A stretch of DNA of 64,000 nt, from the NCBI GenBank assembly GCA_038867615.1, contig JAWBYA010000002.1, positions 320,001 to 384,000 on the forward strand, written 5' to 3'. Made by a program: the position numbers and the translations under genes. This document shows, piece after piece, positions 42,161 to 63,811 of the stretch; the stretch's first letter is position 1, and every line of letters begins with the position of its first letter. Origin of the DNA: Sulfolobales archaeon. Lineage in GTDB: Archaea > Thermoproteota > Thermoprotei_A > Sulfolobales > AG1. The notes below the pieces were generated by a model. It was not told the origin of the DNA and searched no databases. It saw only the letters and a list, made by a program, of their open reading frames with translations.

Positions 42161-42183
42161 TACCATATTAACTAATTATATTA

Positions 42184-42317
42184 CTGTTTATCCTTGAATA
42201 TTCATTGAGCTTTCCTTTATAATATCTTATCTAGAACTTCTATCTAACCCGTAGGAGTTTCCCTCACTCCTGCGGGTTATAGATCGCGTTGAACTCAACG
42301 TTACAGAGCGTTCCCAT
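42184..42317 (-). mobile_element. Degenerate IS200/IS605-like right end (omega-RNA-like remnant), copy A
   Basis: Minus strand ATGGG...AACCCGCAGGAG-loop-CTCCTACGGGTT...GAAGTTCTAG...GGATAAACAG follows the layout of copies at 49.5 and 63.7 kb; 14-bp hairpin at 42245-42279. Confidence 0.55.
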
Positions 42318-42412
42318 AAGGTTTACTCTATTTCACTGACACAGTGTTTCATGAGAGATCGCGTATTGACAGCTACATATCGAAGAGAGACTTGGTAGAA
42401 TTAAAGGGGTTT

Positions 42413-42499
42413 TAGAGTTAAAGGGGGTCAGGATATATAATATGGATTGGGAGGGTGCTTGCTAGAGTTAAAGGGGGTCAGGATATATAATATGGATTG
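42413..42499 (+). repeat. Exact 37-bp direct repeat (period 50 bp) at the methyltransferase 5' end
   Basis: tagagttaaagggggtcaggatatataatatggattg at 42413-42449 and 42463-42499; partial third copy tagaattaaaggggt at 42396-42410. Confidence 0.95.
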
Positions 42500-43310
42500 T
42501 TTAGAGGGTATGAGAAGTATTCTTAAACCTAGAGAGGTAGATGTTGTTGTTACCTCCCCTCCATACAATATTGGGGTGAAATACGGTAAATACAATGACA
42601 CTATTTCTAGAGATAAATATCTTGACTGGATCGAGCAGGTTGGTGTGGAGATTAAGCGTGTTTTGAAAGATGACGGTTCATTCTTCCTAAACATGGGCTA
42701 TAAGCCTACTGACCCCTGGGTGGCTTGGGAGGTTGCTTTTAGACTTAGGAAGCATTTTGTTCTTCAAAATGTGATAATATGGGTCAAATCAATAGCAATT
42801 CAAAAAGAGGATGTAGGAGACTACCCTAATATCAGAGGAGATATAGCTGTTGGACACTATAAACCAATTCCAGGAAATCGTTTTCTGAACAACAATTTCG
42901 AGTATATTTTCCATTTCACAAAAAACGGCGATGTCGAGCTCGACAGACTGGCTATAGGAGTTCCATACCAGGATAAAACCAATATTGGGAGGTGGAAAAG
43001 TGCAAAACAAGATCTAAGATGTAGAGGGAACACATGGTTCATACCATATGAGACTATAATGTCAAGAGAGAAACAACGCCCCCACCCAGCAACTTTCCCA
43101 GTCAAACTCCCAATGATGTGTATCAAACTACACGGGCTGAAGAAGACTAAGCTTGTCTTAGACCCATTCATGGGAATAGGAAACACAGCTATAGCCAGCA
43201 TAAGGCTTGGAGTAGGCTTCATAGGTTTTGAAATAGACGAAAACTATATAAAAATAGCTGAAAAAAGGATTAAACAGGAGCTACTATACTATGTTAAGGA
43301 AACTCTCTGA
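42459..43310 (+). CDS. Type II beta-class amino-DNA methyltransferase (N4-cytosine), M.MjaV-like
   Basis: TSPPY motif IV at N-terminus, [14 protein letters not shown] motif I at C-terminus; closely resembles the recalled M.MjaV sequence ([26 protein letters not shown]); TTG start at 42459 with GGAGGGTG SD. Confidence 0.9.
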
Positions 43311-43884
43311 TGATATTCTCCTTTTTGTAGAGATTTGGATTATTAGTGTTAAATTCGTTTTTCAATGTTACCCTAACTTTAGACAGGTCGACTATCTTAA
43401 AACCTAACACTTTTTTATCTCTATGAATAAAGCTTACCAGAACATGACTAGCATCTTTAGTAATCTTAGCATGCTCTGTAGGTTCATAGTAAAAGGATCT
43501 AAGGTTACTGCTCAGTTCTTCTACGCTAACAAACTTTACTTCAATGTAATAGGATTTACCGCTCCTCTCTATCAATATATCAGGATAACCGGCTATCTTC
43601 GATTCTGGTATAACTCCGTGTAGTCTATTTCTAAGTTCTTTCTCTAATTTATTACTTATCTCGTTTGGTCTCAACTTAGAAAAATTCTGGGTCTTAGCCC
43701 ATTCTAAAACTTCTTTAGAAGCGTTAAAAATCTCATCTATAACATTCTTATCAGCTTCTGAAATTGGATACACTTTACAGCCTGTAGTGACCTCGATTAC
43801 TTTTGAAAACGGTATATTTCTTAGCTTCTTTTTAAGAAACTCTGCATATTTCTCGATATCTTCCTGAGGCACGCGGCGTGTCAT
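43294..43884 (-). CDS. Putative type II restriction endonuclease (PD-(D/E)xK)
   Basis: RPNE, GYPD...YIEVK catalytic motif, RSFYYEP; convergent with and overlapping the MTase; AT-rich. Confidence 0.8.
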
Positions 43885-43962
43885 ATTTCAACACCTTACT
43901 TAAAAGTACAAAGACATGGTTTAATGTTTAATAGCCTCCAAGACTAACAATATCCTGGCTAT

Positions 43963-44922
43963 ATGGTGAACAAACATATGCCGACTTCAGGGAAAACGCC
44001 TCTCGTCTTTCTAGCATCTGTTCTTCTGAATGCCGCCCAAGCAGCTGTTAAGCTGGCAGCCTTTATCATAGTAGGTTCTCTAGCAATCTATGCCGAGACA
44101 CTCCACTCGGTGAGCGATGTTATTAACAGCTTTATACTATACCTAGCATCATATATAATTGTTAATAAGAAACCCTCGCCAAAATACCCCTTCGGCTTTG
44201 GTAGGTTTCCCTATATAGCTAGCATAATCTCGATCTCGATCCTGGTAGGAGCTATAGCGAACAACATACTAACCCAGGCTTATGAGGCGCTCCATGAGGG
44301 AGGAAGGCTATATGGAGATGTGATCAGCGGAGCTTATCTACTAGCTATAGCGACATTCATGGATGTAGGTATACTACTCTTCATATTTATGGCGAGAGAT
44401 GCCTGGAGGAACCCATCGTCTAAGATGAGACCCTTATTCATGGCACTCATCCTTGAGGACTTATTCTCGTTTAGCGGGAACGCCATTGCTCTTGCCTCAC
44501 TATATATGATTGGGATAACTAGTATAGCAGATGTTATAGCATCTATAGTGATCGTCGCTATAATAATCATGGCATCTGCATATGTTATCTACAAAAACAT
44601 AGAGATCCTTATCGGAAGATCCGCTCCCAGAGATGTGATGCTCAAGATACTCAACAGAATATCAAAGATCTCTGATGTTGTCGATATAGACGACCTTAAG
44701 AGCTATGTATTAACCCCAGATAACATTGTGATAATGGCAACAATAGGTGTCGACCCGAGGAAGAGCATAGGCGATCTCGAAGCACTGAGGGAGAGAATAA
44801 TAAGGGAGATAACCAGCATCGACCCGAGAATCAAGAACGTGATTATCCAGTTCTCAAGCGAGCCTATAGATGACCGTGATAGGGATAAGATATACAGGGA
44901 AGTAAGCTCAATGGATGAATAG
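43963..44922 (+). CDS. Cation diffusion facilitator family transporter
   Basis: AETLHSVSD, YPFGFGR, LED, AD; about 6 TM plus cytoplasmic domain. Confidence 0.9.
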   Translation: MVNKHMPTSGKTPLVFLASVLLNAAQAAVKLAAFIIVGSLAIYAETLHSVSDVINSFILYLASYIIVNKKPSPKYPFGFGRFPYIASIISISILVGAIANNILTQAYEALHEGGRLYGDVISGAYLLAIATFMDVGILLFIFMARDAWRNPSSKMRPLFMALILEDLFSFSGNAIALASLYMIGITSIADVIASIVIVAIIIMASAYVIYKNIEILIGRSAPRDVMLKILNRISKISDVVDIDDLKSYVLTPDNIVIMATIGVDPRKSIGDLEALRERIIREITSIDPRIKNVIIQFSSEPIDDRDRDKIYREVSSMDE

Positions 44923-45245
44923 ATCTTAATTTATTTCAAGCGCCTCTAAAACAAACAGTGTAATAGCTATTTAGGATCTGTAAATAGATAATGGAGACCA
45001 TTAGATCCGAAGACTTATGTGCTATACCGTAATCAAAATAACCACCGCCCCGCCTATAGTAGCTTGATACACAAAACTTACAATAGCCTGTAGTAGTTTT
45101 TAAATATTTTATCTTATAATACCCTAATATAATAGCCTAAGGGAAAAATACTTTGATCTATGAAATCTTAATGACTCTATGACGCAAAACCAAGATCCAT
45201 GGTTAGAGGTTTTTATTACTAGGCATAACTATATTTAGATAAGCC

Positions 45246-45881
45246 ATGTTCTTAAAACCACATGAGGGTTTAGTCAAGATCTATGGGTCTAGAAAGCTTT
45301 TCCTAATATGGTGGCCTTTCACAATAGTTAATTTTAATACGTGTGAAAACAACTACCTCGTAGATCTTTTGGTGGCCTCTGAGATCACGGACCCCCTACC
45401 CCTGATCCTCACCATGAGGAGGTATAGGGATAAGCGTCCTATTGAACCCTCGCCATCTGTAGAGGCACCAATACTGATCCCAAGATCTGTTGGGCCTAAC
45501 ACCATAATGGAGCTGATCTATAAGATCAAGAAAGGAATCGAGATGACAAAGGATAAGGATACCTCTCAGAGTTCTCGGCCTGTTAGGAGTTATAGGTATC
45601 AGATGTTTTCTAAGAGACCAAGTACGCTTGAAGAGGCTATAGCTAACCCTGTCTCCAGAGGAATCCTCTCTGAGATCTTGTCATCAATATGCATTAGTAG
45701 CAATAACGTTAGGATCACATCATATAATCCGATACACGTTTTAGTAGGTATCAGTAAAGACATGAAAGAATTTAGCCTTTTCATGGATAAGAAGATCAGG
45801 AGTATTAACCACGAAATATACGTGTTAACCAACGAACATGTTAAAGACCTTATAGAGAAATATATGAAGTTGAACATCTAA
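45246..45881 (+). CDS. Hypothetical protein
   Basis: 211-aa ORF with upstream TATA-like sequence; no recognisable motif. Confidence 0.55.
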   Translation: MFLKPHEGLVKIYGSRKLFLIWWPFTIVNFNTCENNYLVDLLVASEITDPLPLILTMRRYRDKRPIEPSPSVEAPILIPRSVGPNTIMELIYKIKKGIEMTKDKDTSQSSRPVRSYRYQMFSKRPSTLEEAIANPVSRGILSEILSSICISSNNVRITSYNPIHVLVGISKDMKEFSLFMDKKIRSINHEIYVLTNEHVKDLIEKYMKLNI

Positions 45882-45929
45882 AACCAGTTGTGTTGTAAAT
45901 AAGAAGCCCAGCAACCGCAAACTCAAAGA

Positions 45930-45985
45930 GGATCAGCACTCAAGACCATGCTCATCACTCACATCTCCCGAGCTCATCACTCACC
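45930..45985 (-). ncRNA. Candidate C/D-box guide sRNA
   Basis: Minus strand GTGATGA-gctcgggagat-GTGA-GTGATGA-gcatggtcttgagtg-CTGA = C, guide, D'-like, C', guide, D; intergenic; AT-rich TATA-like sequence just upstream. Confidence 0.6.
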
Positions 45986-46232
45986 ATATATAATAATCTG
46001 CTCCCTTAAATCCAGGGGTTTAGGGTGCTTATTATAGCACTTACCAGGACTGGGCAGCAATAAGCAGATCTCTAGGATATAGAGGAGAGTTAACCACTAA
46101 AAACGATAATAGCCTCTTTCCCATTTTAAATGAAAGAGAATAGTAAGCTATAAGCGATCATGGTAGATGACTAGGATCTCTTTCCACACGGCCCCAAGAA
46201 TAGGGATTTAAGCGTTGGCTAGGAAAGGATCT

Positions 46233-46983
46233 ATGGTGAAATCCTTGCCCAGGTTCTTTACCGATCGTTTTATTCTCACACCCGGTCCTACAGAGATCCC
46301 TGTAAGGATAAGGATGGCCATGATACGCGAGGAGACCAACCCGGATCTCGACCCTGGTTTTCTGGAATTCTCTAGGAGGGTCTCTGACAAGCTGAAAACT
46401 GCTAGGGATAGGTAGGAGCAGCCTCTATATAATGGTTGGCGAAGCCATGTTGGGATTAGAGGCCGCTATAGCCAACATAGTTAGGCGTGGTGATAAAGTG
46501 CTTGTAGTCTCTAACGGTGTTTTTGGTGAGGGTTTCGCTGACCTTGTGAGGATGTATGGGGGTATTCCAGAGATTATTGAGTGTGATTGGAGGAGAAGCA
46601 TCGATGTTGGGAGTGTTGAGAATGTCTATGAGAGGCATAGAAAGGCTAGAGAGGCATCGTGGAGAGCCCTCGAAGCAGCAGGGTTAAAACCATACCCAGA
46701 ATCTAAGTAGTACTCTTCACCAACAGTCACAGCGATCGAGGTTCCTACAGGTGTCGATGAAGCTATGTTGAGAGAGATCATGTGGAGCAAATATGGCGTA
46801 ATGATAGCAGGGAGCTGGGGCAGACTTGCAGGAAGAGTTATAAGGATAGGGCATATGGGTGTCCAAGCATCAAGAAACCACTTGATCGTAGCCTTCACAG
46901 CGCTAGCGAGAGCACTAAGTGATATGGGATATAGGGTTAACATAGGAGGCGTTATAGAAGCTATAGAGAACACCTACACATAG
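46233..46983 (+). pseudogene. Class V PLP aminotransferase (serine-pyruvate/alanine-glyoxylate type) pseudogene
   Basis: ILTPGPTEIP; stop at 46413 plus frameshift; GEAMLGLEAAIAN, NGVFGE; large internal deletion removing the PLP-Lys region; in-frame TAG at 46708; SPTVTAI and IRIGHMG C-terminus. Confidence 0.9.
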
Positions 46984-46992
46984 CCTTCAACA

Positions 46993-47108
46993 CCGTCTAT
47001 TCTTTGATCCTTTCCTATGCTTTGCTACTATCTCGCTCTTTAGAAACCTCTACTATTATTTTTTATTATTCCATCCTAAGCTGAAACCAACAATATAGAG
47101 CTCCTTAT
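46993..47108 (-). mobile_element. Highly decayed IS200/IS605-like right-end remnant, copy B
   Basis: Minus strand ATAAGGAGCTCTATATTGTTGGTTTCAGC...GTAGAGGTTTCTA...GAATAGACGG follows the same layout, differing mostly by transitions. Confidence 0.3.
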
Positions 47109-47323
47109 ATATGGTTGTGCTCTCTCACCATATTTTCCTAATCGATGGATTCTCTAATTGCGACTCTACTTTAGCATCCCCTCTATAATTGATATCCATG
47201 ACTCCTAAGGTTTTCAGAGAGCAAGAACTGGTTCAATCCATAAACACATGCCCAGCTATATAGCATTGGTGACTATAGGATATAAGTGTATGTCTCAATA
47301 ACTACTAGGAGAGGTTTAGGTTT

Positions 47324-48214
47324 ATGGTTTTATATGAGCTTATTAAGGATCTAAAGGTTTCTGACGCATTAGTTGATGTTCCTTCATGCTATGTTGATGA
47401 CCCGCTAGCTATAGCTTTAGATATACTGGCTGCAAAGAGATCTCCCAGGAGGATTGTTATAATAGATAGGGAGAGGAAGGTTAGAGGTGTGATCACCTCC
47501 CTCAGGATCCTTGAGATCCTCTTAGGCTTCAGGGGTTCTGTGATGGTTAAGCTGAGAGGCTTGACCAGGGTTCTCAGGGAGAAGGTGATCCTTTTCTCCG
47601 ACGAGGCACCCTATACAATGGTTCGGGACACACCCCTAATATCGGTTATAAAACATATGGGTGAGAATAGCATACCAATGATACCGATAGTAGATGATCT
47701 GGGCACATATATGGGTGTAATCGACGAGACCCGCGTGCTAAAACTCCTCAAGGGGAGAACATTCGGAGAAGAAGTGTCAATAGCCATTGAGGCCGTATTC
47801 CCATCAGTATTTATGAGAGACACTGCTTTGAAGGCTGCCGAGGCTATGATAAAAGAGGTGAAGGGCAAGGCTGTGGTTCTTAACGATAAGAACCTGCCAG
47901 CCGGTGTTGTTACTGCGAAAGATATACTCAAACTACCCCTCGTGACTGAGGAGATAATAGAGCTTCTGAGAACAGATGTTGAGGTTGGTTTCGCAGATAT
48001 ACTTGGCAAGGTGGGTGTTACTAAAGTGATGAGCTCGCCAGCGATCATAGCTAGAGAGGGTGAAGATATAGGCAGAGCCATAGACACCATGATCGATAGC
48101 GATGTGGGGCTCTTACCGATTGTAAGCGAGAAGGAGGGAAGATTCACCGGGGTTTTAACAAGGATGAGTGTGATAAGAGCGATAGTGAGAGAACATATAA
48201 ATCCCCTGGGGTAA
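47324..48214 (+). CDS. CBS domain-containing protein (4 CBS)
   Basis: Repeated GVIT/GVID/GVVTAKD/GVLT and xPIVD motifs. Confidence 0.85.
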   Translation: MVLYELIKDLKVSDALVDVPSCYVDDPLAIALDILAAKRSPRRIVIIDRERKVRGVITSLRILEILLGFRGSVMVKLRGLTRVLREKVILFSDEAPYTMVRDTPLISVIKHMGENSIPMIPIVDDLGTYMGVIDETRVLKLLKGRTFGEEVSIAIEAVFPSVFMRDTALKAAEAMIKEVKGKAVVLNDKNLPAGVVTAKDILKLPLVTEEIIELLRTDVEVGFADILGKVGVTKVMSSPAIIAREGEDIGRAIDTMIDSDVGLLPIVSEKEGRFTGVLTRMSVIRAIVREHINPLG

Positions 48215-48219
48215 GGAGT

Positions 48220-49437
48220 GTGGATATAACAAGAAGGATCGAGGATTATATTGGGATCGTTGATAGAGATGAGATCGAGTATATCAAGGAGTTGGCAGAG
48301 AACGTAAAGGGAGCCAGGGTTCTCCATATAAACTCAACAAAGAAAGGTGGAGGAGTTGCCGAGATCCTTAGGAGTGTCGTTCCACTAGCAAACTCTCTAG
48401 GGCTTAAGGTTAGGTGGGAGGTGATAAGCGGGGATAGAGAGTTCTTTGAAGTAACTAAGAGTTTCCACAATGCTCTCCAGGGCAATAAGGTGCTAAAGCT
48501 TGGAGGAGACATGATTAGAAAGTATCTAGAAACTAACGAGATAAATGCTGGGAAAATCGATACTGATGCCGATGTTATCGTGATCCACGATCCACAGCCT
48601 GCAGCCCTGATATCTTATAAGAATAAAGGGAGCTCGAAGTGGATTTGGAGGTGCCATATAGACCTCTCGGATCCCAATGAGCAGTTCTGGAGCTTTCTAA
48701 GGGGCTTTGTGACCATGTATGATGCAGCTATATTCTCCCACGGTATATATGTGCCCAGGGATCTCAGAGGGATCAAGATCTATATATCCCACCCATCAAT
48801 AGACCCTCTGACCGATAAGAATAAGCCGCTAAGCCAGACAGAGATTGAGAGAACTATATCTAAATACGGAATAGATCCTGAGAAACCCTTGGTAGGACAA
48901 GTAGCCAGGTTCGACCCTTGGAAGGATCACCAATCAGTGGTTAGGGTTTATAAGGCTTTGAGACAGAAGGTGGAGAATCTACAGCTAGTGCTCCTAGGAT
49001 CCTTTGCCGACGACGATCCAGAGGGGGAAAGGATCTATAAAGAGGTTCTTAAAGAAACCGAGGGTCTTAGTGATGTGTATGTTATAAACGAGCACAACGA
49101 TTTTCTGGTAAACGCTATCCAGAGATCCATGGTTTTCGCATTCCAACTATCAATAAGAGAAGGTTTCGGACTAACAGTAAGCGAAGCTCTCTGGAAATAC
49201 ACACCAGTTATAGGGAGAAGAGCCGGAGGAATACCACTACAGGTAATAGATGGTGTGACAGGCTATTTAGTCAATAATATAGAAGAGGCATACGAAAAAG
49301 CCCTCATGCTCACAAAGAAGCCATGGCTAGCAAGAATGCTTGGTGCCAATGGACACCAACATGTTAAGAGGAACTTCCTGATCACAAGAGACCTAAGAGA
49401 CTATCTAAGAATACACATAGATCTCGTTGCCAGATAA
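48220..49437 (+). CDS. treT: Trehalose glycosyltransferring synthase (GT4)
   Basis: HINST..GGGVAEIL, TKSFHNALQG, IHDPQP, WRCHID, SIDPL, RFDPWK, DDPEG, EGFGLTVSEALWK. Confidence 0.9.
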   Translation: MDITRRIEDYIGIVDRDEIEYIKELAENVKGARVLHINSTKKGGGVAEILRSVVPLANSLGLKVRWEVISGDREFFEVTKSFHNALQGNKVLKLGGDMIRKYLETNEINAGKIDTDADVIVIHDPQPAALISYKNKGSSKWIWRCHIDLSDPNEQFWSFLRGFVTMYDAAIFSHGIYVPRDLRGIKIYISHPSIDPLTDKNKPLSQTEIERTISKYGIDPEKPLVGQVARFDPWKDHQSVVRVYKALRQKVENLQLVLLGSFADDDPEGERIYKEVLKETEGLSDVYVINEHNDFLVNAIQRSMVFAFQLSIREGFGLTVSEALWKYTPVIGRRAGGIPLQVIDGVTGYLVNNIEEAYEKALMLTKKPWLARMLGANGHQHVKRNFLITRDLRDYLRIHIDLVAR

Positions 49438-49503
49438 CCTAACCACCACCGCTCTCCACGATCTTGCCACACAGAGATCATCCTATTAACAAGACATTCA
49501 CAA

Positions 49504-49640
49504 CAGTTTGACCCTGGATGCTAATTCTACTCATTTTATTATTCATGGTCACATCCAAGGACTTCCGCCCCAACCCGCAGGATCTCTAACCCTGCGGGGT
49601 CATGGGAGTCTGTCGAGCCAAACAGCACCTGCCTCCCATC
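49504..49640 (-). mobile_element. Best-preserved IS200/IS605-like right end (omega-RNA-like scaffold) without tnpB, copy C
   Basis: Minus strand GATGGGAGGCAGGTGCTGTTTGGCTCGACAGACTCCCATGACCCCGCAGGGTTAGAGATCCTGCGGGTTGGGGCGGAAGTCCTTGGATG...CATCCAGGGTCAAACTG; two intact stems; reads DGRQVLFGSTDSHDP, like recalled crenarchaeal TnpB C-termini. Confidence 0.65.
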
Positions 49641-49826
49641 TACTAAGAGATCATCACCTAGATGGCTTGGAGCTTTGCTTCCATCGCTAGTCAATATGGA
49701 GACAAGTCCTACCAGCAGAGATAGATGTATATAGTTGATAGGGAGAGATCGCAATGATCGGGTTTGCAGAAAACTGCAAACCCAGAATATATAATCTTTC
49801 TACCACCGGGGGAGTTGGTGAATATA

Positions 49827-51329: not shown

Positions 51330-51353
51330 CGATAAGATCTAGGGGAGCTTGTT

Positions 51354-54002: not shown

Positions 54003-56500
54003 AGGTTTTTATCCCTCCTGATACTTGATATTTGTTTTTTCAGCCTCTCTATGAATAGGCGTGCTTCTTCTTCTCTCCCCTTTGCAGCGTTTTCAAGCAT
54101 ATCTAGTGTTTGGGCTAGTATATCCTCGCCCCTCTTTTTCATACTATCTATACTCCATAGGATGGCTCCACAGATAGCCATCACATAGATCTTTCTATAA
54201 AAGCTACATCTATGGATATTACCAAGGCTCCATGCAACATCTTCCGAAGGATCTTCGCCTCTTAGATACTTAACCAACGCCCTACCAGTTCTAGCAAGCA
54301 CTAATGGTTCGCCCATCTTGATCTTGTTATTAGTCATGATCTCCTCGGCCTTGTCTAGATCTCTCTCGCCAGCCTCTAGATCTCCTAAGAGGAGCTTTGA
54401 TATTGACATATCTATATATATGCTAGCCTCTAAATATGGGTAGCCGGGCCCTAGGATTGTTGCTGCTTTTTCAAGCATCTCCACAGAGCCCTTAAGATCC
54501 GCTAACATGAAGAGGGTGCTAGCCAACTCTTTATACCCTATCGCCAGGCTATGCTTCGCACCGAGATCCTCAAAGATCTTCATGGCCGTTTTAAGGGAAT
54601 CGATGGAATCCCCATACCTAAGCATAAGCCTATAAGCCATGCTAAGCCATCCCCTAGCCAGTGCTTCTCCAAACCTATTCCCAAAGACCATGTATCTCTT
54701 CACAATATGCTCAAGAATCTCTACAGCCTTCTCTAGATCCCCCATCTGCTGGTAAGTAGCTGCAATGTTATAGAGAGCACTATCACGGGCCTCACGATCC
54801 CTGAGTTCCATTGACATCCTTAAAGCTTGGTTGAGCTCTCTAAGCGATTCTTCATATCTATCCAAATGTCTGTATATAATACCCATCTCGATCTTAACTC
54901 GGAGCAAGAGTCTCTTGGAATAAGCCTCACCTATCTCCCTAGCCCTTTCAAGATGATCCAGGCTGCTCCACGGATCTCCTCTAAGCTTCTCAACAATAGC
55001 CAGAGCAAGCTCAAACCAGCCGAGGTTTGTGGGGCTTTTCCACCTAACCGTATTTCTCGAAATCTTGTTGAGCACCTCGCCATATAGATGCAGACCGATC
55101 TTTCCTTGACTGATCGACTCAACAAGTTTGGGGAGCATCTCAGCAGCCTCTTCATACATGCCAGCATCTACATAGTGTTTCATAGCTACTAGATAGTCCT
55201 CGACGTATCCTCTAGATCTATGGTATGAGGCTATAATAGCGTGAAGCTCCTCGGGATCCTCTGTAACCCGTGCACATGTCTCTCTGATAAGCTCGTTAGC
55301 AGTATATCCTTCCCCTAACCTCTTGACCAGAAACATTCTCTCAAGCGTGCGGACAGCCTGTTTCGGATCGCTGATCCTGAGAAGCTTGATCATTGAGAAA
55401 GGCACTGGCCTCTCCGCTATCGAGATCAGCTCCAATACTCTACGCTCATCAGGAGATAATGCATCTATAACCTCGCTTACTATATATTCCATGGTTTTTG
55501 AGATCGCCTCGGAGCCTCTATGGCTCTTTAGTAATGATGAGTATAGCAATAACAGGTGGGGATGCCCACCAAATACGCTATAGAACCTCTCGAAATCCTC
55601 CAGCGATAAGCCTACCCTTTCAGCAAGGTCTCTAGCCTCTCCATACCCCATACCCCTCACCTCTATTGATGCACATCTTCCCAGGCAGTCTCTAGGCATC
55701 GTTCTCGATATTATGATCAGTTTGCTCTTGATCCTCCCAAGCTCTGATACGGACTTAACAAGATCGTGTATAACGGGATCGGTGTTTAGGTGATAGTCAT
55801 CAATAACTATAACCAGCTCCCTTGTCGAAAGCTCCTCAAGCAATAGGTTCATTAAGAGCCTCTCATCAGTAACACCACTATCAAGGGCTTCTAGTAGTCT
55901 TGGATATCCCAGTAAGTTGAGGAAGAGCGAGATCCTTCTAAGAAGCTGTATGAACGTGATCCCCCTATAGATCTGGTTCCAAAGCACAGGGATCTTAGAG
56001 TCGCTCAGAGCCCTAGCCACTAGAGAGGTTTTCCCTATCCCTGCAATGCCTACTACAAAAACAGGGTTTCCAACAGCCTTTTTCAAAGCATCTATATAGC
56101 TATCTCTACCCACGAAAACAGGTGTAGGGGGTGGGAGGAAATACATGTCATGCGCGGCTTTCCCGCCAGGCCTGCCAAGATCTATGCTAACGCCCCCAGC
56201 ACCTACCCTGATCAAGATCTCAGGGGATCTAGCATAGTAGAGCTTAACATTAACACCCTCCCTTCTAACCCACCTACCCTCTACCAAACCGAGCTTCTCT
56301 AGCTTAGAGAGCCTTCTAGATACTGCTGTCTCATCAGCACCTAAAACTGTGCTGAGCTTCCTGGGGTTAGATGGCATTGAGGAGAGCACAATTAAGATCT
56401 TTAGCGATAAATCATCGGCTAGCGTGGAAAGGATCTCACCGGATCTCTCACGCCCCTCCTCGCTCCTGGGATTGTCGCTAATCATCTCGTTCGGAGCCAC
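53999..56500 (-). CDS. ArsR-type HTH + STAND P-loop ATPase + TPR repeat protein (MalT/NB-ARC-like architecture)
   Basis: N-terminal wHTH; FVGR; Walker A GIAGIGKT; Walker B LVIVIDDYH; IIISR sensor; GGHP GxP motif; long C-terminal TPR array. Confidence 0.88.
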   Translation of the reverse strand: MAPNEMISDNPRSEEGRERSGEILSTLADDLSLKILIVLSSMPSNPRKLSTVLGADETAVSRRLSKLEKLGLVEGRWVRREGVNVKLYYARSPEILIRVGAGGVSIDLGRPGGKAAHDMYFLPPPTPVFVGRDSYIDALKKAVGNPVFVVGIAGIGKTSLVARALSDSKIPVLWNQIYRGITFIQLLRRISLFLNLLGYPRLLEALDSGVTDERLLMNLLLEELSTRELVIVIDDYHLNTDPVIHDLVKSVSELGRIKSKLIIISRTMPRDCLGRCASIEVRGMGYGEARDLAERVGLSLEDFERFYSVFGGHPHLLLLYSSLLKSHRGSEAISKTMEYIVSEVIDALSPDERRVLELISIAERPVPFSMIKLLRISDPKQAVRTLERMFLVKRLGEGYTANELIRETCARVTEDPEELHAIIASYHRSRGYVEDYLVAMKHYVDAGMYEEAAEMLPKLVESISQGKIGLHLYGEVLNKISRNTVRWKSPTNLGWFELALAIVEKLRGDPWSSLDHLERAREIGEAYSKRLLLRVKIEMGIIYRHLDRYEESLRELNQALRMSMELRDREARDSALYNIAATYQQMGDLEKAVEILEHIVKRYMVFGNRFGEALARGWLSMAYRLMLRYGDSIDSLKTAMKIFEDLGAKHSLAIGYKELASTLFMLADLKGSVEMLEKAATILGPGYPYLEASIYIDMSISKLLLGDLEAGERDLDKAEEIMTNNKIKMGEPLVLARTGRALVKYLRGEDPSEDVAWSLGNIHRCSFYRKIYVMAICGAILWSIDSMKKRGEDILAQTLDMLENAAKGREEEARLFIERLKKQISSIRRDKNL

Positions 56501-56614
56501 CGCCTGACTCTTTAATAACTAACCTTCTATATATATAACGAGATAATATATGATAACATCACTTGCTCGAAAGCGGGTTATAACTGTCCTAGCGATAGAT
56601 ATACCAGAGGGTAT

Positions 56615-57745
56615 ATGAAGCAAGCAGAACTATATAGAAAGCTTGAAGATAAGCGGGTTGAGTGCCTAGCCTGTGCGAGGAGGTGCAGGCTAGCCCCGGG
56701 ACAGATAGGTTTCTGTGGGGTTAGGGGTAACAAGGAGGGGGAGTTATATTTATTGGTATATGGTAAGGTTATAGCGATGCATGTAGATCCTATTGAGAAG
56801 AAGCCTTTAAGCCACTTCCACCCAGGATCGATGGTTCTCTCGATAGCCACTACAGGTTGTAGCTGGGCATGTATGTATTGCCAGAACTTCGATATATCCC
56901 AAAGGAGGGTTGTAGAGGGTTTCGAGGTATCGCCAGAGGAGATTGTCGACATAGCTTTGAAGGTGGGCGCACAGGGGATAACGTATACCTATAACGAGCC
57001 AAGCATCTTCGCCGAGTTTGCCCACGATGTTGGGGTTGCTGCTCACAAGAGGGGTCTTTTCAACAATTTCGTCTCTAACGGCTATCTAACGGATGAGGCT
57101 GTTGACTATTTATCAAAATTCCTCGATGCTATTACAGTTGATTTTAAAGGGAATGCCGATGATACCTTCGCAAGGAAATTCATACTTATACCAAGCTATA
57201 AACCTGTTTTCGATGCTCTCTTGGAGCTTAAGAGGAAGAAGATCCACATAGAGATCACAGATCTAGTGATTCCGAAGGTTGGAGACGATCTGGAGAAGGC
57301 CAGAAAGCTTGTGAAATGGATCCACGATAACCTTGGTCCCGAGACACCTATCCATTTCCTAAGATTCCACCCCGACTACAAGATGATGGATTACCCCTGG
57401 ACCCCTATAGAGACTCTTGAGAAGCATATCAAAATAGCTAGGGAGGAGGGGATGAAATATGTCTATATAGGCAACGTACCAGGCCATCCAGATGAGCACA
57501 CATACTGTCCAAAATGCGGTAATGTAGTGATAGAGAGATACGGCTTCGAGATAGTGAGTTGGAGACTTACGAAAGATAATAGGTGTAGATTCTGTGGCGA
57601 GAAAATACCAATAGTAGGAACGCTCCACGAGACATATAGGGATAACAGGTTTTTCCCAATACCGATCTATAGGCTTAAGAGATTCGAAAGAGTAGATGCC
57701 AAAAAGATCTTGACATCGTCGAAGGAGCAGAGCAAGCGCAACTGA
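56615..57745 (+). CDS. amrS: AmmeMemoRadiSam system radical SAM enzyme
   Basis: [63 protein letters not shown]. Confidence 0.9.
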
Positions 57746-57788
57746 TCTATAAAAGCTTATAATCAAGCTAACACTATCACACATTGTG

Positions 57789-58127
57789 ATGAGCTTGGTG
57801 AAAGTTTTGCTCTTAATCATGTCAGGCGACGAAAAAGCAGATCTTGGAGTTAGGTTCGCCTATAGATCAATAGAGAATCAGAGGTTCGAAGACCTGAAAG
57901 TCATATTCTTCGGCCCTAGCCAGAAGAGGATCCTAGAGTACAGTGGTGAGATGAAGAAAATGCTGGATGAACTAAAGAAAAGAGGAGCTGTCGATGCTGC
58001 ATGTATAGGCGTAGCCAAGGATCTAGGGATCGAAAAGCCTCTGGAAGATCTCGGGCTCGCCTTAGTACCTGTGGGCAATAGAATCAAGTATTTCTTAGAA
58101 AAAGGATACCAGGTTATATCTTTCTAG
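57789..58127 (+). CDS. DsrE-like small protein
   Basis: KVIFFGPS, AACIGVA, GYQVISF pattern. Confidence 0.75.
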   Translation: MSLVKVLLLIMSGDEKADLGVRFAYRSIENQRFEDLKVIFFGPSQKRILEYSGEMKKMLDELKKRGAVDAACIGVAKDLGIEKPLEDLGLALVPVGNRIKYFLEKGYQVISF

Positions 58128-58129
58128 CA

Positions 58130-58420
58130 CTATTTAGTAGCAAGCTCCTGCTCGGTTTTTCTCCTCTTAACGGCGGCGTCAAACACTATCCAGTTTCTAT
58201 ACCACTCCTCGTTTTCCCTCCTCAAGAGCTCTAGAACCATTCTAGTAAGATCTTTTGCAGATACCTCCTTAACACCTTGATCTAGAAGCCTTCCCTCAAT
58301 TATTTTAGCGATCTTTCTAGCGGCATCAAGCGTAGCCCCTGCCTTCATACAGCTCACAACGATTTTTTCGAACACGAATTCCTCCTTACTACCATCTCTT
58401 TTTACAACATATATGGTCAA
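58130..58420 (-). CDS. Stand-alone ATP-cone domain protein
   Basis: VVKRDGSKEEFVFEKI..SC..AG. Confidence 0.88.
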   Translation of the reverse strand: MTIYVVKRDGSKEEFVFEKIVVSCMKAGATLDAARKIAKIIEGRLLDQGVKEVSAKDLTRMVLELLRRENEEWYRNWIVFDAAVKRRKTEQELATK

Positions 58421-58599
58421 GACCCGATCACCATAACAATATCTTCAATTAAAAATATATCTATCATACTAATGTATCATAGATCCTTGACAATAATAAG
58501 ACACACATGCCATAGCCCCGCGCTCTGCCCTAATAAGCTGATTTCTATGTCAACCCTTGATTGGTTGAAGAATACCACTTAGGCGGAAAGAGCTTATCC

Positions 58600-58743
58600 T
58601 AGAGATCTTCATATCGCTTGGCTCAGCGTTAGCATCACGAACGTGTGATAGAGCTTCCTTAGAGTATGTAAGAGTTTTTAGATGGGATGTAGAAGTATGT
58701 AGAAGAAAACAAATAATATCAACAAATATCAAGAGACAAACAG
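58600..58743 (+). mobile_element. Highly decayed IS200/IS605-like right-end remnant, copy D
   Basis: CATATCGCTTGGCTCAGC...GATGTAGAAGTATGTAGAAG...A-rich...AAGAGACAAACAG follows the layout of copies C and E. Confidence 0.3.
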
Positions 58744-58809
58744 ATAACAACATATATCTGACTAGTATGAACTATATACTGGTGGTTTGAAATACTGGTA
58801 TTCGCACTC

Positions 58810-59985
58810 GTGAAAGGAGTTCCAGCGAACACAGCAAGGGTTGTGACTGTAGGCGGTATCCTGAGGAGGGAGGAGATGGATATAGTTCTGAATCCTTATG
58901 ATAGGAAAACAATCGAGGCTGCTGATTATATGAGGAGAAGGGTTGGGGGAAAGCTTGTGGCAATGTCTATGGGTCCCCACCCAAAGATCATACCTATAAT
59001 GAGAGAGATCTTCGATGCAGAGGTTTCTGGAATAGATGAGGCATATATATTAAGCGACAAGAGAATGGCTGGTGCTGATACATGGGCTACATCATATACG
59101 CTCTCTAGAGGGATCTTAAAAGTATTATCTATACATAGAGAAGCGGTTGAGATGCTGGCTAACGCCATAGAATCTGGCGAGGCTATAGATAAGGTTGAGG
59201 CCCTAGCAACAGATCTATATAGGAGGAACCTTATACCCAACAAGATCTATAGTGATAAGCCATCAATAAGGGATACCCTTATTAATATGCTTAGAGAGGG
59301 AAAGATCTCTAGGAGCGATGCTGTAGAGCTCCTCAAGGAGGAGGCGAAGAGAGTTACAACGAACTTCGTTATTTTCTGTGGGATGAAAGCAGCTGATGGA
59401 GAGACTGGTAACGTTGGCCCCCAGGTTGCTGAGGCCCTTTCACAGGAGCTTGGGCTCACAATACCCCATGCGTCCTTTGTGGTTGATTATGAGTATATCG
59501 GTGAGAGGAACTCTCTCCTAGTTAAGAGGAGGCTCATAAACGTCATGCAGATCATAGAGTTAGATCTCCCGTCTGTTCTAACAATACATGTAGACTACTC
59601 AGCACCGCCTGTACCTCTCTCTGGCAGGAGAGCTTCTCTTATGAATTCATATAGGGGCAAAAACACCAATATAACTATATGGTCTGCTGACGATATAAAG
59701 GCTGATCCAAGATATATAGGACTTGCTGGATCGCCAACCGTGGTTGGCCCAGGTATTGATATTGGTAGACCTCATGTTAGAAAGATTGTTGGATTATCTA
59801 TCATAGCTGCCAAGGATATCGATAAGATCAGCTATGGTGATAAGACCTATGGTCCCTTCAAAAAAGGAGATCTTCTTGACAGCCTGCCCGAGGATCTTAA
59901 GAGGGATCTAGCAGCAAAGGGGCTGGCTAAGACCTTTGATTACGAGGATCTTGCTGAAGAGATCATAAACATATTGAGGGGGTAG
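58810..59985 (+). CDS. fixA: Electron transfer flavoprotein beta subunit (FixA/EtfB), enlarged; start probably slightly upstream
   Basis: VKGVP, LNPYD, SMGP, GADTWATS..L, DGETGNVGPQVA, GLAGSPTVV. Confidence 0.9.
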   Translation: MKGVPANTARVVTVGGILRREEMDIVLNPYDRKTIEAADYMRRRVGGKLVAMSMGPHPKIIPIMREIFDAEVSGIDEAYILSDKRMAGADTWATSYTLSRGILKVLSIHREAVEMLANAIESGEAIDKVEALATDLYRRNLIPNKIYSDKPSIRDTLINMLREGKISRSDAVELLKEEAKRVTTNFVIFCGMKAADGETGNVGPQVAEALSQELGLTIPHASFVVDYEYIGERNSLLVKRRLINVMQIIELDLPSVLTIHVDYSAPPVPLSGRRASLMNSYRGKNTNITIWSADDIKADPRYIGLAGSPTVVGPGIDIGRPHVRKIVGLSIIAAKDIDKISYGDKTYGPFKKGDLLDSLPEDLKRDLAAKGLAKTFDYEDLAEEIINILRG

Positions 59986-59993
59986 ATGGTTCT

Positions 59994-61145
59994 ATGCAGC
60001 CGCAAAACCGGCAGGCACCGACTCTCAACATGCTTCCATCAACTCCAGATATAGAGAGCTATAGGGATGTCTGGACATTCGTCGAGATCTTTAGAGGAGA
60101 ACTGATAAGCTATAGCCTTGAGGGGATAGCTGCTGCTAAAAAGATAGCTTCTAAGGTTGGCATGAAAGTAGGGGCTCTCGTAGCTGGCGATAAAGTTAGC
60201 GATGATATTGCTAAAACACTGATAGAACACGGCGCAGACTATGTAGTTGCTGTAGAACACCAATACCTAGCTGATTACGAGCCCCTCGCCTATACCGAGG
60301 CTTTGGAAGAGATTGTGAGGCTTAGGAAGCCGTGGGCTCTTATATTTATGGCCGATGAGGTGGGCAGAGATCTAGCCCCAAGACTTGCCTACAGGCTTGT
60401 CACAGGGCTTGCTACAGATAATATTGATTTCGATGTCGAGGACTTTTTCCACGGACTCTTGAAAGAGAAGTTCTCAAACATACTGGCTCAGATAAGGCCT
60501 GACTTTGCTACAAGGATAGCTAAGATATATACGCCGAGACATAGACCCCAGATAGCGTCTCTCCGACCGGGCTCTTTCAAACCACTCCAGAGAGATCCAT
60601 CTAGGGTTGGGGATGTATATAGATACACACCAGCACTTAAAAATTACCAGAAGAAAGTAAGGATCGTGGACTACGAGAAGATCGAGGATAGAGGCGCTGA
60701 GCTCCTAAGCGCGAAGTTGATAGTGGGTCTAGGGCTAGGGATCTTGAGGGATGCCGAGGGAAACGCCAAGAACCCTCTAGAGGCTGTCGACATGGCTAAA
60801 AAGATCCTAGATCTTGTCAGAAGAAAACTCGGTGTGGAGACAGCACTGGGAGCTTCTAGAGCACTTATACATGCAGATGTAAAGGAGCTGAGGGAGATCA
60901 TAACACACGATATACAGATCGGACAGACCGGAAAGACAGTATCGCCCAAGGTATATATAGCTGCTGGTATAAGTGGTGCGATACAACATAGAGTAGGGAT
61001 CCTGAGGGCCGGCAGTGTGGTTGCCATAAATATAGACTCCAGAGCACCGATACACGAGATAGCTCACTACTCAATAATAGAAGACCTATATAGAGCCTTA
61101 CCTAAGCTTTACGAGGCGTTGCAGAAAAAGCTTGAGAGTAGGTGA
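59994..61145 (+). CDS. fixB: Electron transfer flavoprotein alpha subunit (FixB/EtfA)
   Basis: GRDLAPRLA..L.TGL, GASRA, QIGQTGKTVSPKVYIAAGISGAIQH, AIN.D..API. Confidence 0.93.
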   Translation: MQPQNRQAPTLNMLPSTPDIESYRDVWTFVEIFRGELISYSLEGIAAAKKIASKVGMKVGALVAGDKVSDDIAKTLIEHGADYVVAVEHQYLADYEPLAYTEALEEIVRLRKPWALIFMADEVGRDLAPRLAYRLVTGLATDNIDFDVEDFFHGLLKEKFSNILAQIRPDFATRIAKIYTPRHRPQIASLRPGSFKPLQRDPSRVGDVYRYTPALKNYQKKVRIVDYEKIEDRGAELLSAKLIVGLGLGILRDAEGNAKNPLEAVDMAKKILDLVRRKLGVETALGASRALIHADVKELREIITHDIQIGQTGKTVSPKVYIAAGISGAIQHRVGILRAGSVVAINIDSRAPIHEIAHYSIIEDLYRALPKLYEALQKKLESR

Positions 61146-62869
61146 GGATAGTGGTAGATAAGCACGATGTAATAGTAGTAGGGGCAGGACTGGCCGGGAG
61201 TGCTGCTGCATATTATCTAGCTAAGAGGGGCTATGATGTACTCTTGGTTGAAAAAGCCAAAGTACCTGGGCAGAGGAACGTTACTGGAGGCATTCTCTAC
61301 GGATCCTTTATCCCGGGGTATGGATTAATAGACCTCATACCGGATTTTGAAAGCGAGGCCCCCCTCGAGAGGAAGGTGGTAAAATACAGGCTTGCAATGA
61401 TATCAAGCCCCACATACCCCGCTGAGTATAGATATAGGGCTGTCGCTCCTAACGAGAGATCATATATGGTTCTAGAGATAGATGAGACGTCAGTGCTCGA
61501 TAGATTTATCCATAGAGGTATATCCACAGGGCATGACTACACAGTGATCAGGGCTAAGTTTGATAGATGGTTCGCAAGAAAAGTTGAAGAAGTTGGGGGA
61601 ATTGTGGTCACAGCAACAGCTGTCGAGGATCTCGTTATCGAGGATGAAAAGGTAGTTGGTATAAGAACAAATAAGGAGGAGATACACGCGGATCTCGTTA
61701 TCGATGCTAGCGGTATTACAAGCAAGCTCGTAATAAAGGCTGGGCTTAGAAAACCCCTAGATCCTAGCCAGGTTTACCATGGTATCAAACAGGTTTACCA
61801 ACTGAGTGAGGATGAAATTAACAAGAGGTTCGGGCTTAAAAACGGTGAGGGGATGGCTATAGCTATAATGGGTGATTTCCTCAGAGGAATGATCGGTGGT
61901 GGCTTCATATATACAAACAGGGATACGATCTCGGTAGGCCTTGTTGTTACAATGAGCAGCATGCTCAAGAGTCTCAGAAAAAACGTCGAAGAGATTGGAA
62001 AGCCGTTGGACGTGCTAGAGGATATGATCTCGCACCCGTATGTGAGCAGATTTATAGATGGTGCAAAGCTTGTTGAGTACTCAGCACACAACATTCCCAA
62101 AGGACCCATGACTTTTCTAGAAAAGCCTTTGAGAAGCGGCTTTCTAGTAGCTGGGGATGCTTTGGGAGCGTTTGTAAAGATAGGAGGTCTTATAGACGGT
62201 ATGAGGAGAGCCATAGCTACAGGGATCATGGCTGCCCAGACCTATATATATGCTAGGAAGAACAACGACTTCAGCGAAAAGACTCTCTCAATATACCTAG
62301 ATCTCCTCCAACCGATCTATAGGGATATCAGGAGGGCTGCTAGAAACAGCACCCTATCCGAGAGCAGGATTCTGTATGGTCCCGGGTATAGGCTTCTCCT
62401 AAGATTTCTCGGGAAAAAGGTCTTGGGAACCATAGGGGAGAGGATAAATAATAAGGATGCCTTACAGAAGATCCAGGAGAGAACAGGGCTCCTAGTATAT
62501 GAGGAGGATAAGAACTACTCACACATAAAGATAGACTACGCCGCAGCTAATAGAGATCCGTATAAGCTCTGGGTCCCAGCATGCCCAACCAACTGCTACA
62601 CATTATCGGTTCCCGGAAAGGGTATATTCGCCTCATATAGGGATCTATATAAACATAACCTAGAGAGGCTTAAAAAAACAGGATCTAGTGGTAAGGATCT
62701 CGAGAAAAAAGCCCTCGAAGAGACATGGAGAGACGTTGCTAGAGCTGAGATCAGGTTTGATCATGTTGCGTGCGTCTCATGCGGAACATGCTGGGTGATC
62801 GGTCCTCCAGATGTCATTTCATTCAACCCAGAGAGAAGCGGACATGGAGTTAAGTTTAGATACGGCTAG
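61142..62869 (+). CDS. fixC: FixC FAD oxidoreductase fused to a FixX-like ferredoxin
   Basis: VVGAGLAG, PLER, RAKFDRW, LVEYSAH.IP, AGDA; C-terminal ACPTNCY and CVSCGTC...GVKFRYG. Confidence 0.9.
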   Translation: MRIVVDKHDVIVVGAGLAGSAAAYYLAKRGYDVLLVEKAKVPGQRNVTGGILYGSFIPGYGLIDLIPDFESEAPLERKVVKYRLAMISSPTYPAEYRYRAVAPNERSYMVLEIDETSVLDRFIHRGISTGHDYTVIRAKFDRWFARKVEEVGGIVVTATAVEDLVIEDEKVVGIRTNKEEIHADLVIDASGITSKLVIKAGLRKPLDPSQVYHGIKQVYQLSEDEINKRFGLKNGEGMAIAIMGDFLRGMIGGGFIYTNRDTISVGLVVTMSSMLKSLRKNVEEIGKPLDVLEDMISHPYVSRFIDGAKLVEYSAHNIPKGPMTFLEKPLRSGFLVAGDALGAFVKIGGLIDGMRRAIATGIMAAQTYIYARKNNDFSEKTLSIYLDLLQPIYRDIRRAARNSTLSESRILYGPGYRLLLRFLGKKVLGTIGERINNKDALQKIQERTGLLVYEEDKNYSHIKIDYAAANRDPYKLWVPACPTNCYTLSVPGKGIFASYRDLYKHNLERLKKTGSSGKDLEKKALEETWRDVARAEIRFDHVACVSCGTCWVIGPPDVISFNPERSGHGVKFRYG

Positions 62870-62908
62870 GCTTTAGTATTTACCGACGCCTGTTTTACCA
62901 CGGTGTTT

Positions 62909-63619
62909 TCAGGACTCCTCCTGGGATTCTTCGTAAACTTTTCTCTCGAGGGGGGGTGTCATAACCCTCTCCCTGAGATAGTTAACTATCTTCCTAGCCT
63001 CATCCTCAGCAACGTGCCTACCTATCTTTTGGGCTTCCAGTATCTTCTGCGCCAGCACGCCCTCAGGCGACTCTCCCTCTTGGATAGGGATTCTTAGTCT
63101 CTCAAACACCATTGGGCTTGGATGCAATATCGCCCCTTTCTTTATAAACAGTTCGTTATCAAGCCGGGTTACAACAAGCGAACCGACCTCTTCATCACCT
63201 AGTTTTAGAGTATATACTAGATCGCCATCCAGGGTCTCGCCAAGCTTTACAACCTGATACTCAACGCCTTTTCCAAAAGCCTCTTGCCAAAGCATTGCAC
63301 CACCAATGGATCTGACTATATTATCGATCTCCTTATCCCTCCTGAATACTTCTATCGATAATCTAGAAGGATCCCATACGATCTTTCCACCCTCTATTTG
63401 ATAGTCTATCCTTATCCTGACTACATCGCCCTTATCAACCTTAAACCTATCAACAAGAATCTTATACAACGTACTGTTGAGCTCACCAATTGCTCTCGCA
63501 ACCTCCTGCGACGAGATAACTCCTCCCCTAATCTCGTCTCTGAGCTGGGCAAACGCTGTTCTCCTAAGCTTATCAGCATACCCACCAGCTATTACATAAC
63601 CAGAGCTTAATGTTGGCAT
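62909..63619 (-). CDS. DUF2258 / ThermoDBP-related ssDNA-binding protein
   Basis: LSSGYVIAGGYADKLRRTAFAQ, ELN..LY..LV, KGDVVRIRIDY; start at MPTL (63619). Confidence 0.88.
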   Translation of the reverse strand: MPTLSSGYVIAGGYADKLRRTAFAQLRDEIRGGVISSQEVARAIGELNSTLYKILVDRFKVDKGDVVRIRIDYQIEGGKIVWDPSRLSIEVFRRDKEIDNIVRSIGGAMLWQEAFGKGVEYQVVKLGETLDGDLVYTLKLGDEEVGSLVVTRLDNELFIKKGAILHPSPMVFERLRIPIQEGESPEGVLAQKILEAQKIGRHVAEDEARKIVNYLRERVMTPPLERKVYEESQEES

Positions 63620-63673
63620 AGTATCACCATAGATCACTTATATATAAGGGGATAATAAATCGAACATACTGTT

Positions 63674-63811
63674 AATAGCAGTTTCATAATAGTAAAGTTG
63701 ATAGTACGCCCATGAATCAACAGGGATAGAGATCCTGCGGGCGGTGGAAACTCCTGGATATAACTATGAATAAAGATAAAGTGATTGAAACTAACACCCA
63801 GGTATAAACAG
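63674..63811 (+). mobile_element. IS200/IS605-like right-end (omega-RNA-like) remnant, copy E
   Basis: Aligns by eye with the reverse complement of 49504-49620 over ~110 bp (CCCATGA..CAGGGATAGAGATCCTGCGGG..GGAA..CCTGGAT..ATGAATAA..CCAGG..AAACAG). Confidence 0.6.

Follow-up and report, generated by a model that had tools for sequence, protein, structure and literature searches.

Four intergenic elements in a 64,000-nucleotide stretch of a Sulfolobales archaeon genome are most probably dead fragments of right ends, left by a family of miniature transposable elements that derives from a tnpB-only insertion sequence (IS) of the IS200/IS605 type. The stretch, hereafter the window, covers positions 320001-384000 of contig C2 in the assembly of this archaeon (G000; 94% complete, 28 contigs). 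The family is of the kind known as palindrome-associated transposable elements (PATEs) or miniature transposable elements with inverted repeats (MITEs), and the four fragments are called copies A, C, E and D. An original prediction, made from the letters of the window, had described five such elements (A to E) as a dispersed family of orphan tnpB right ends, that is, as non-autonomous elements or stand-alone guide-RNA loci that could load a TnpB in trans and might have been domesticated. The present reading is carried by homology, by the position of the right end at the 3' end of tnpB, by RNA covariation and copy numbers, and by the absent left ends, divergence and differing occupancy of the window copies.

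The parent insertion sequence and its miniature derivatives

What the window elements correspond to is the final ~195 nt of a tnpB-only element of the IS200/IS605 type, 1.5 kb in length. In an alignment of 27 strong copies, each extended by 400 nt on both sides, family conservation has a sharp 3' edge right after ...GGGACAAACGG and reaches about 350 nt upstream of that edge. Most of the extended copies share a left part of ~160 nt starting (GGGC)TGTTTTCTTTTTGATAT, and two of the 27 have coding sequence upstream in its place. Two tnpB genes of the same family are present in the genome, both outside the window, at C1:2175-751 (an open frame of 474 aa) and C2:204277-203111 (388 aa), so the nuclease is not missing from the genome. 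The left end matches the DNA directly upstream of both genes (C1:2283-2220, 86%; C2:204655-204594, 82.5%), and the right end lies inside both frames (C1:783-977 within 2175-751; C2:203164-203352 within 204277-203111). The right end stands at the 3' end of tnpB in both of the genome's own copies and at all 11 related TnpB loci in other genomes, which include Desulfurococcaceae archaeon AG1 and several metagenome-assembled genomes of Thermoprotei and Sulfolobales. That the window itself contains neither tnpB nor tnpA had been stated correctly: none of the five PF07282 matches of the genome falls inside it, and neither does any PF01797 match. The accompanying statement that the sequence upstream of each copy is not TnpB-like is misleading, since the element itself corresponds to the last ~195 nt of the tnpB frame.

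The protein of this family aligns with positions 43-388 of the 389 of the NCBIfam profile guided_TnpB (E 5e-24; 85.3 bits, below the 100-bit cut-off) and scores above the cut-offs for TIGR01766 and PF07282. A Cas12f1 is the only protein of solved structure to which it is related by sequence (E 2e-4), and D, E and D are present by eye at the places that we take to be those of the RuvC motifs. The tnpB frame has no stop inside the element. It crosses the whole scaffold and ends 32 nt (C1:751-977) or 53 nt (C2:203111-203352) into the flanking DNA, and the C-terminal tail of TnpB therefore varies between copies. At two of the related tnpB loci (L048:2324-2518 and L052:402-600), the inner hairpin of stem 1, which reads GGTGATGGGAGCAGCGCTCCAAGCC elsewhere, occurs in exactly reverse-complemented form, through inversion of a palindromic segment within the coding region.

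The family is abundant and centred on one genus. A covariance model of the right end (R1) finds at least 70 matches in G000 at E<=0.01, which is a lower bound because the best 150 of 719 candidates were scored and because copy A is absent from the matches listed. With E<=1e-5 and the best 121 candidates scored per genome, six genomes of the genus gave at least 61, 43, 104, 49, 49 and 121 matches, whereas 15 other genomes of the family or order gave 0-8 matches each. A scan of the genome and its relatives with such a model had been proposed together with the original prediction, and the R1 scan bears out a dispersed family. Complete copies can be recognised by their left end. Of 29 left-end matches in G000, 22 begin at the start of the profile; 19 of these pair into protein-less elements of 289-354 bp, two pair into tnpB elements of 1503 and 1495 bp, and one is without a right end. 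Because the miniature elements share both the right end and the left end found upstream of tnpB, they are internal-deletion derivatives of the tnpB IS. The idea of non-autonomous elements therefore holds at the level of the family, with its 19 complete miniature copies, and fails for the copies in the window, which have no left end. The median identity among complete miniature copies is 79% and that of the closest pair 95.7%; no very recent burst is visible among the complete copies of G000.

A transposase of the Y1 type (TnpA, PF01797) was found in two of the six genomes of the genus. In G004 it is intact and lies at a locus without an R1 right end, and in G005 it is a remnant beside one. The G005 remnant (L076:1092-1590, on contig C3 of that genome) has one internal TAG and lies ~200 nt upstream of a same-strand right end of 83.9 bits; the pair may be what remains, in decayed form, of an autonomous ancestor.

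The genome also contains a second tnpB family, unrelated to the first (C1:11364-12746 and C6:23920-25308, plus a fragment, C1:51250-51747). It has its own dispersed 3'-end copies of ~190-310 bp (for example, C1:12447-12701; about 60-80 blast hits, none in the window), the nearest to the window being C2:315713-315899 and C2:385643-385847, and it likewise has miniature elements of ~310 bp. A serine recombinase (C23:6616-7053) was considered as the missing transposase and set aside, as it is unlinked to the ends or the tnpB of either family.

The probable RNA scaffold and the guide position

The layout originally described for the elements, from ATGGG and CCCAT through a GC hairpin and an A-rich part to a tail, is real. 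A stem ATGGG/CCCAT is accompanied by the loop CCGTTTGG and a GC hairpin, and these are followed by a long stem GTCCCTGGAT/ATCCAGGGAC around an A-rich loop and by the tail CAAACGG. Our model comprises four stem regions and a proposed pseudoknot of the loop CCGTT with the tail AACGG. It was evaluated on a cross-species alignment of 21 sequences, namely all 13 tnpB-linked copies, seven hand-picked from 36 fetched miniature or relic loci, and copy C. In this alignment 90.5% of cells are paired and 23 of 54 pairs have changed on both sides; none of 500 shuffles reaches any of the five measures, and pairing falls to 30-50% when the 3' partners are slid. The pairs of the pseudoknot are nearly invariant, and covariation thus neither supports nor contradicts it. 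A model-fitted alignment of 40 matches from one genome gives 84.6% pairing and double changes at 31 of 49 pairs, with 0/500 shuffles reaching this, in an alignment that leans towards the structure. A comparison of the window with Rfam 15 gave nothing that reaches gathering score, and two full copies gave only noise at E<=1; the right-end RNA family is absent from Rfam.

Position (2/2 own and 11/11 related loci) and covariation together confirm the correspondence that had been drawn between the elements and the 3' end, with its RNA scaffold, of crenarchaeal tnpB. Judged by position, structure and variable guide position, the right end is probably the omega-RNA, or right end element RNA (reRNA), scaffold of TnpB, which would be transcribed and loaded by the protein.

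The expectation of a different guide for each copy is borne out among the 44 copies that reach the 3' boundary: all 44 differ in their 20-nt 3' flank, and conservation drops sharply after ...CAAACGG. Without gaps, none of the 44 flanks matches another place in the genome over >=18 nt, and one apparent 16-of-16 second match proved to be a gapped alignment. An 18-mer from the flank of copy C occurs in five viral contigs, in contexts that are unrelated but for one duplicate pair, and none of these sites has GGGC upstream; we judge them to be chance matches. The flank of copy E, the other one included in the viral search, has no 18-mer match there. The comparison of 3' flanks with viral contigs (C and E) and with the genome, suggested earlier as a check, has thus yielded no credible target. 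One further match was seen for the flank of a decayed copy at C9:25254, which agrees at 18/19 positions with C5:12948-12966 (GCGGGC followed by TTGTGCTCTACAGCTA) without surrounding homology. By a rough estimate ~0.04 such matches are expected by chance, and the site may be target-like or may owe its resemblance to chance.

Information on how the elements move comes from a congener. In G002, the orthologue of copy D contains a well-preserved miniature element of 189.7 bits (L071:2323-2511, C28:123735-123923) that is absent in G000 and G003. It is nested directly after the relic's own ...CCCTGTGGGC (GTGGGC), without a visible flanking duplication, and would be evidence of recent mobility in that congener, through insertion into the family's own hairpin sequence. 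Furthermore, GGGC precedes TGTTTTC at 18 of the 22 left-end junctions. The nested insertion and these junctions suggest GGGC as the target-adjacent motif of the family.

A working model can be proposed for the family. The ~195-nt right end within the tnpB frame would encode the guide-RNA scaffold of TnpB, with the guide supplied by the 16-20 nt of host DNA directly beyond it. Through internal deletion, the ~1.5-kb parent would have given rise to elements of 289-354 bp in which the left end, including the region just upstream of tnpB, is joined to the right end, and such derivatives would have spread across the genus in many copies. If the family behaves like the IS605 elements that have been studied, a Y1 transposase would move intact copies in trans, and the RNAs of miniature elements would load TnpB made elsewhere. 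The loaded TnpB may then cut the vacated site, recognised by its motif (probably GGGC) and the adjoining flank, and recombination would restore the copy, which would give the RNA a role in homing. The window copies have lost their left end and, in part, the scaffold; they drift at about the neutral rate and differ between congeners by gain, loss or overwriting.

State of the window copies and their orthologous sites

The window was scanned by R1 with filters off, which listed 16 matches at E<=10, four of them (C, E, A and D) below E 0.01, and the copies were also compared with the whole genome using blastn and nhmmer (Table 1). Of the five elements first described, C, E and A are confirmed as real homologues of the tnpB right end, and D is weakly confirmed as a weak but real relic. 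Copy C is the best preserved. In blastn it has 35 relatives besides itself, spread over many contigs, with 70-83% identity along ~140 nt; its R1 E-value is 1e-43, and it is ~55 nt longer at the 5' side than first described. In a model-fitted comparison it retains stems 2, 3 and 4 and has lost part of the 5' strand of stem 1; standard pairing is kept at 34 of the 49 pairs in the model, stems 2 and 4 each have nine of ten pairs, and the proposed pseudoknot carries one mismatch. Copy E, whose R1 match spans 63644-63811(+), shows genuine homology at nhmmer profile positions 86-190. The segment 63674-63706, part of E as originally described, is not homologous to the family. E is truncated at the 5' side such that the 5' half of the scaffold is gone and the hairpin, last stem and tail remain. 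Many of the loci that it matches in blastn are also matched by C, and the two copies align with 72% identity over 100 nt (~110 bp had been given originally).

Table 1. Right-end relics of the tnpB family in the window
Feature	Position	Strand	Evidence
Copy C, right-end relic without left end	49504..49694	-	R1 136.7 bits, nhmmer E 6e-50
3' flank of copy C, guide position	49484..49503	-	unique in genome
Copy E, 5'-truncated right-end relic	63707..63811	+	nhmmer E 3e-18, R1 57.9 bits
Copy A, strongly diverged right-end relic	42184..42359	-	R1 37.2 bits, E 1.3e-10
Copy D, heavily decayed right-end relic	58551..58743	+	R1 15.9 bits, E 0.0016

The other copies are more remote. Copy A has a weak nhmmer match (E 6.7e-4), and a blastn search of the genome returns only A itself; for copy D the same search gives just two short AT-rich stretches. 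Element B (46993-47108) was rejected as a member, as it lies outside the 16 R1 matches in the window, has no blastn relative in the genome other than itself and no nhmmer relative, and its orthologous intergenic regions in G002 and G003 hold no element. Membership of A, B or D in the second tnpB family was rejected as well, with only chance matches of 8-17 nt. None of the 29 left-end matches of the genome (E<=0.01) falls in the window, and A, C, D and E are all without a left end. They are therefore not mobilisable units, and are fragments of PATE- or MITE-type elements rather than members of that class themselves.

The fragments were compared with congeners (occupancy in G002 and G003, and an R1 scan of the orthologous loci in five congeners). 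Copy C is present at the orthologous site of G003 (107 bits), where 131 of 191 positions are identical (68.6%) with 10 further gap columns. The two genes flanking C are 95.1% and 86.3% identical between the same genomes, their third codon positions 89.6% and 72.8%, and the guide-side spacer 81.8%. Thus, C diverges at least as fast as third codon positions. In G002, C is absent, synteny is broken and an element of the second family is present. In addition, contigs of four DNA runs gave one usable joint, at C in run X9, where both flanks match and 131 different letters stand in for 137 nt of the element. At the site of E, G003 has a second-family remnant in the opposite orientation, and G005 has an R1 copy nearby on the other strand. 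Copy A lies within a 1.74-kb block (42175-43918), 10 nt from its left edge. In G002 and G003 the same flanking genes enclose no such block, and in the five congeners R1 finds no element at the site orthologous to A. Orthologues of D are recognised in G003 (25.1 bits) and G002 (23.6 bits), the G002 version being visibly nearer the consensus.

For the window copies, we found no sign of the domestication, or selective survival of the RNA, that had been proposed: C is less conserved than the third codon positions beside it, A and E are absent or replaced in congeners, E has half a scaffold, and no guide has a second genomic target or, for the flanks of C and E, a credible viral one. The original prediction had itself named neutral decay, together with a lack of transcription, as what would reduce the elements to ordinary IS scars, and it is the decay that is seen here.

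The block around A was noted in its own right. It holds an N6/N4 DNA methylase gene (42447-43310, + strand) and, on the other strand, an uncharacterised open reading frame of 196 aa (43294-43884), and it has the appearance of a restriction-modification cassette that was acquired or lost in one piece. A 37-nt direct repeat is present in two identical copies (42413-42449 and 42463-42499, 50 nt apart), which overlap the TTG start listed for the methylase frame (42447) and may be an operator or promoter duplication. The depth of run X4 over 42464-43791 is 0.39-0.65, as against about 4-8.6 elsewhere, with no joining contig among those listed. We also considered A as the right end of a larger methylase-carrying element; the other edge of the block has no left-end-like sequence, and the idea was dropped. 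Elsewhere in the window, a palindromic motif CGGGTTTGCAGAAAACTGCAAACCC at 49730-49790, upstream of a protease-like gene at 49764, is perfectly conserved in G003, and GGGTTTGCAG near C5 ~12900 of G000 resembles it.

Competing explanations and known systems

Several observations weigh against the reading of the window copies as dead fragments. Right ends exceed recognisable left ends (66 versus 29 nhmmer matches), which on its face fits with better survival of the RNA part; we tentatively attribute the deficit to the lower conservation of the left end (column conservation 0.55-0.79, compared with about 0.85 for the right end) and to its AT-richness. The Y1 transposase TnpA was not found in the G000 assembly. 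The neutral-rate argument comes from a single orthologous pair, that of C, and the two genes used as its yardstick differ much in divergence. At the D site the junction between filled and empty states is not clean, with 18 nt in G000 and G003 versus 4 nt in G002, which keeps GGGC a candidate motif. In a MAFFT alignment of 38 same-genome copies analysed with a single-sequence fold, covariation is not above shuffles; RNAalifold yielded 9 pairs only from this alignment and was discarded, since truncated rows and a register shift spoil it. Finally, C retains stems 2-4 and 136.7 bits, and TnpB loading in trans is therefore conceivable for this copy.

The last point leads to one alternative, namely that the copies, or at least C, are kept as stand-alone guide-RNA loci whose RNAs load the genome's TnpB in trans towards useful targets. 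This explanation appears improbable to us. Preservation of most of the scaffold core in C, with stems 2 and 4 almost complete, its presence in G003 as well, an apparently intact tnpB of the same family elsewhere in the genome and the trans-acting standalone omega-RNAs described in the cited part of PMC10691335 all speak in its favour. However, C has diverged at or above the rate of third codon positions and is absent in G002, E is without the 5' half of the scaffold, decay is far advanced in A and D, and neither A nor E occupies the orthologous sites of congeners. Furthermore, no guide has a second genomic target, the viral 18-mer matches of C look like chance and E has none, and no copy carries the left-end region found upstream of tnpB. 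A broader form of this explanation sees a genus-wide library of cassettes, each combining the region upstream of tnpB with an omega-RNA, that load one thermostable TnpB in trans with dozens of different guides and hold it at GGGC-flanked sites, with even the left-end-less C taking part. Copies number 43-121 or more per 2-Mb genome and tnpB genes one or two, and four of the six assemblies yielded no Y1 transposase. If such a library existed, it would amount to a pre-CRISPR-like guide array scattered over the chromosome; we consider the chance of this to be small.

The position of the copies raises a different possibility, that their GC hairpins have been co-opted and kept as terminators or RNA-stability elements of convergent genes 23-67 nt away. 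The original prediction stated that four of the five elements end just past a convergent stop; we find three, A, C and E (24, 67 and 23 nt), which would agree with such a role. B and D face gene starts instead and do not fit, and congeners do not keep the copies at the orthologous gene ends. Across the genome, only 15 of the 44 right ends face a convergent stop, whereas 29 face a co-directional gene start (median 108 nt; crude calls of open reading frames of >=120 aa), and convergent placement is consequently not a property of the family. Co-option of this sort is thus very improbable. An equally remote prospect is that the window copies are complete, still mobilisable elements with left ends too diverged to detect. 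Left ends are poorly conserved in general, and the sequence upstream of C faintly resembles part of the left end in one alignment. Against this stand the lack of any window left-end match at E<=0.01, the truncation of E inside the scaffold, the failure to find a Y1 transposase in the G000 assembly, and the identities among complete copies (95.7% at the closest, median 79%), in which no recent activity is visible. As a side observation, 26 of the 44 3' flanks begin with T, as read from the printed flanks; together with the co-directional bias (29/44), this may reflect a target-site or orientation preference.

The significance of the finding is modest. Miniature elements with an omega-RNA have multiplied in a burst across the genus and far exceed the nuclease genes in number. 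The scaffold structure, supported by covariation, together with the pseudoknot proposed for it (CCGTT/AACGG) and the GC-rich candidate for the target motif, could be of interest for thermostable compact editors. For annotation, orphan omega-RNA-like intergenic hairpins in such genomes are most simply treated as PATE or MITE relics. A relic can be told from a domesticated guide locus by four features: the left end, orthologue divergence relative to synonymous sites, occupancy in congeners, and second targets.

Known systems place the family further. Standalone omega-RNAs without an adjacent effector or transposase occur in effector-bearing genomes and are reported to act in trans (Altae-Tran 2021, as summarised in the passages cited from PMC10691335). 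The loci studied here likewise have no adjacent effector or transposase, with an effector elsewhere in the genome, but truncation or decay marks those in the window, and their rate of evolution is about neutral. As far as the cited part describes them, TldR and other exapted TnpB systems (PMC10705468) also combine a TnpB-family protein and a guide RNA outside a mobile context; unlike there, the guide-like loci here are not conserved, and no targets were found for them in the genome or, for the flanks of C and E, in viral contigs. A 2025 paper on archaeal omega-RNAs (PMC12558985) makes no mention of MITEs, PATEs, or orphan or in-trans copies, and this particular family was not found described in a limited literature search with supplements outside its scope.

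Among crenarchaeal insertion sequences, ISC1733 is relevant here and is presumably a member of IS200/IS605. The 320-bp non-autonomous element SMN1 of Sulfolobus islandicus depends on the ISC1733 transposase, and no RNA role is described for it in the passages concerned (PMC3718332). Compared by description only, it shares with our family a crenarchaeal host, a length of ~320 bp and, as proposed for our elements, mobilisation in trans by an IS transposase, and differs in the RNA role proposed here. The closest parallel is with PATEs, miniature forms that derive from IS200/IS605 elements and encode no protein (Dyall-Smith 2011, as cited in the preprint of Meers et al. 2023, PMC10055086) that, according to the same part of this source, often encode omega-RNAs needing the TnpB of other elements in trans. 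The differences are that the host is a crenarchaeal hyperthermophile with no Y1 TnpA found in its assembly, that the candidate target motif is apparently GC-rich (GGGC), and that the window copies are right-end-only relics rather than complete PATEs. The 19 complete copies of 289-354 bp fit the PATE description as given there, having the left and right ends of a tnpB IS, no open reading frame, a high copy number and probable mobilisation in trans. The family is thus a newly defined crenarchaeal TnpB/omega-RNA family of an already described kind of element.

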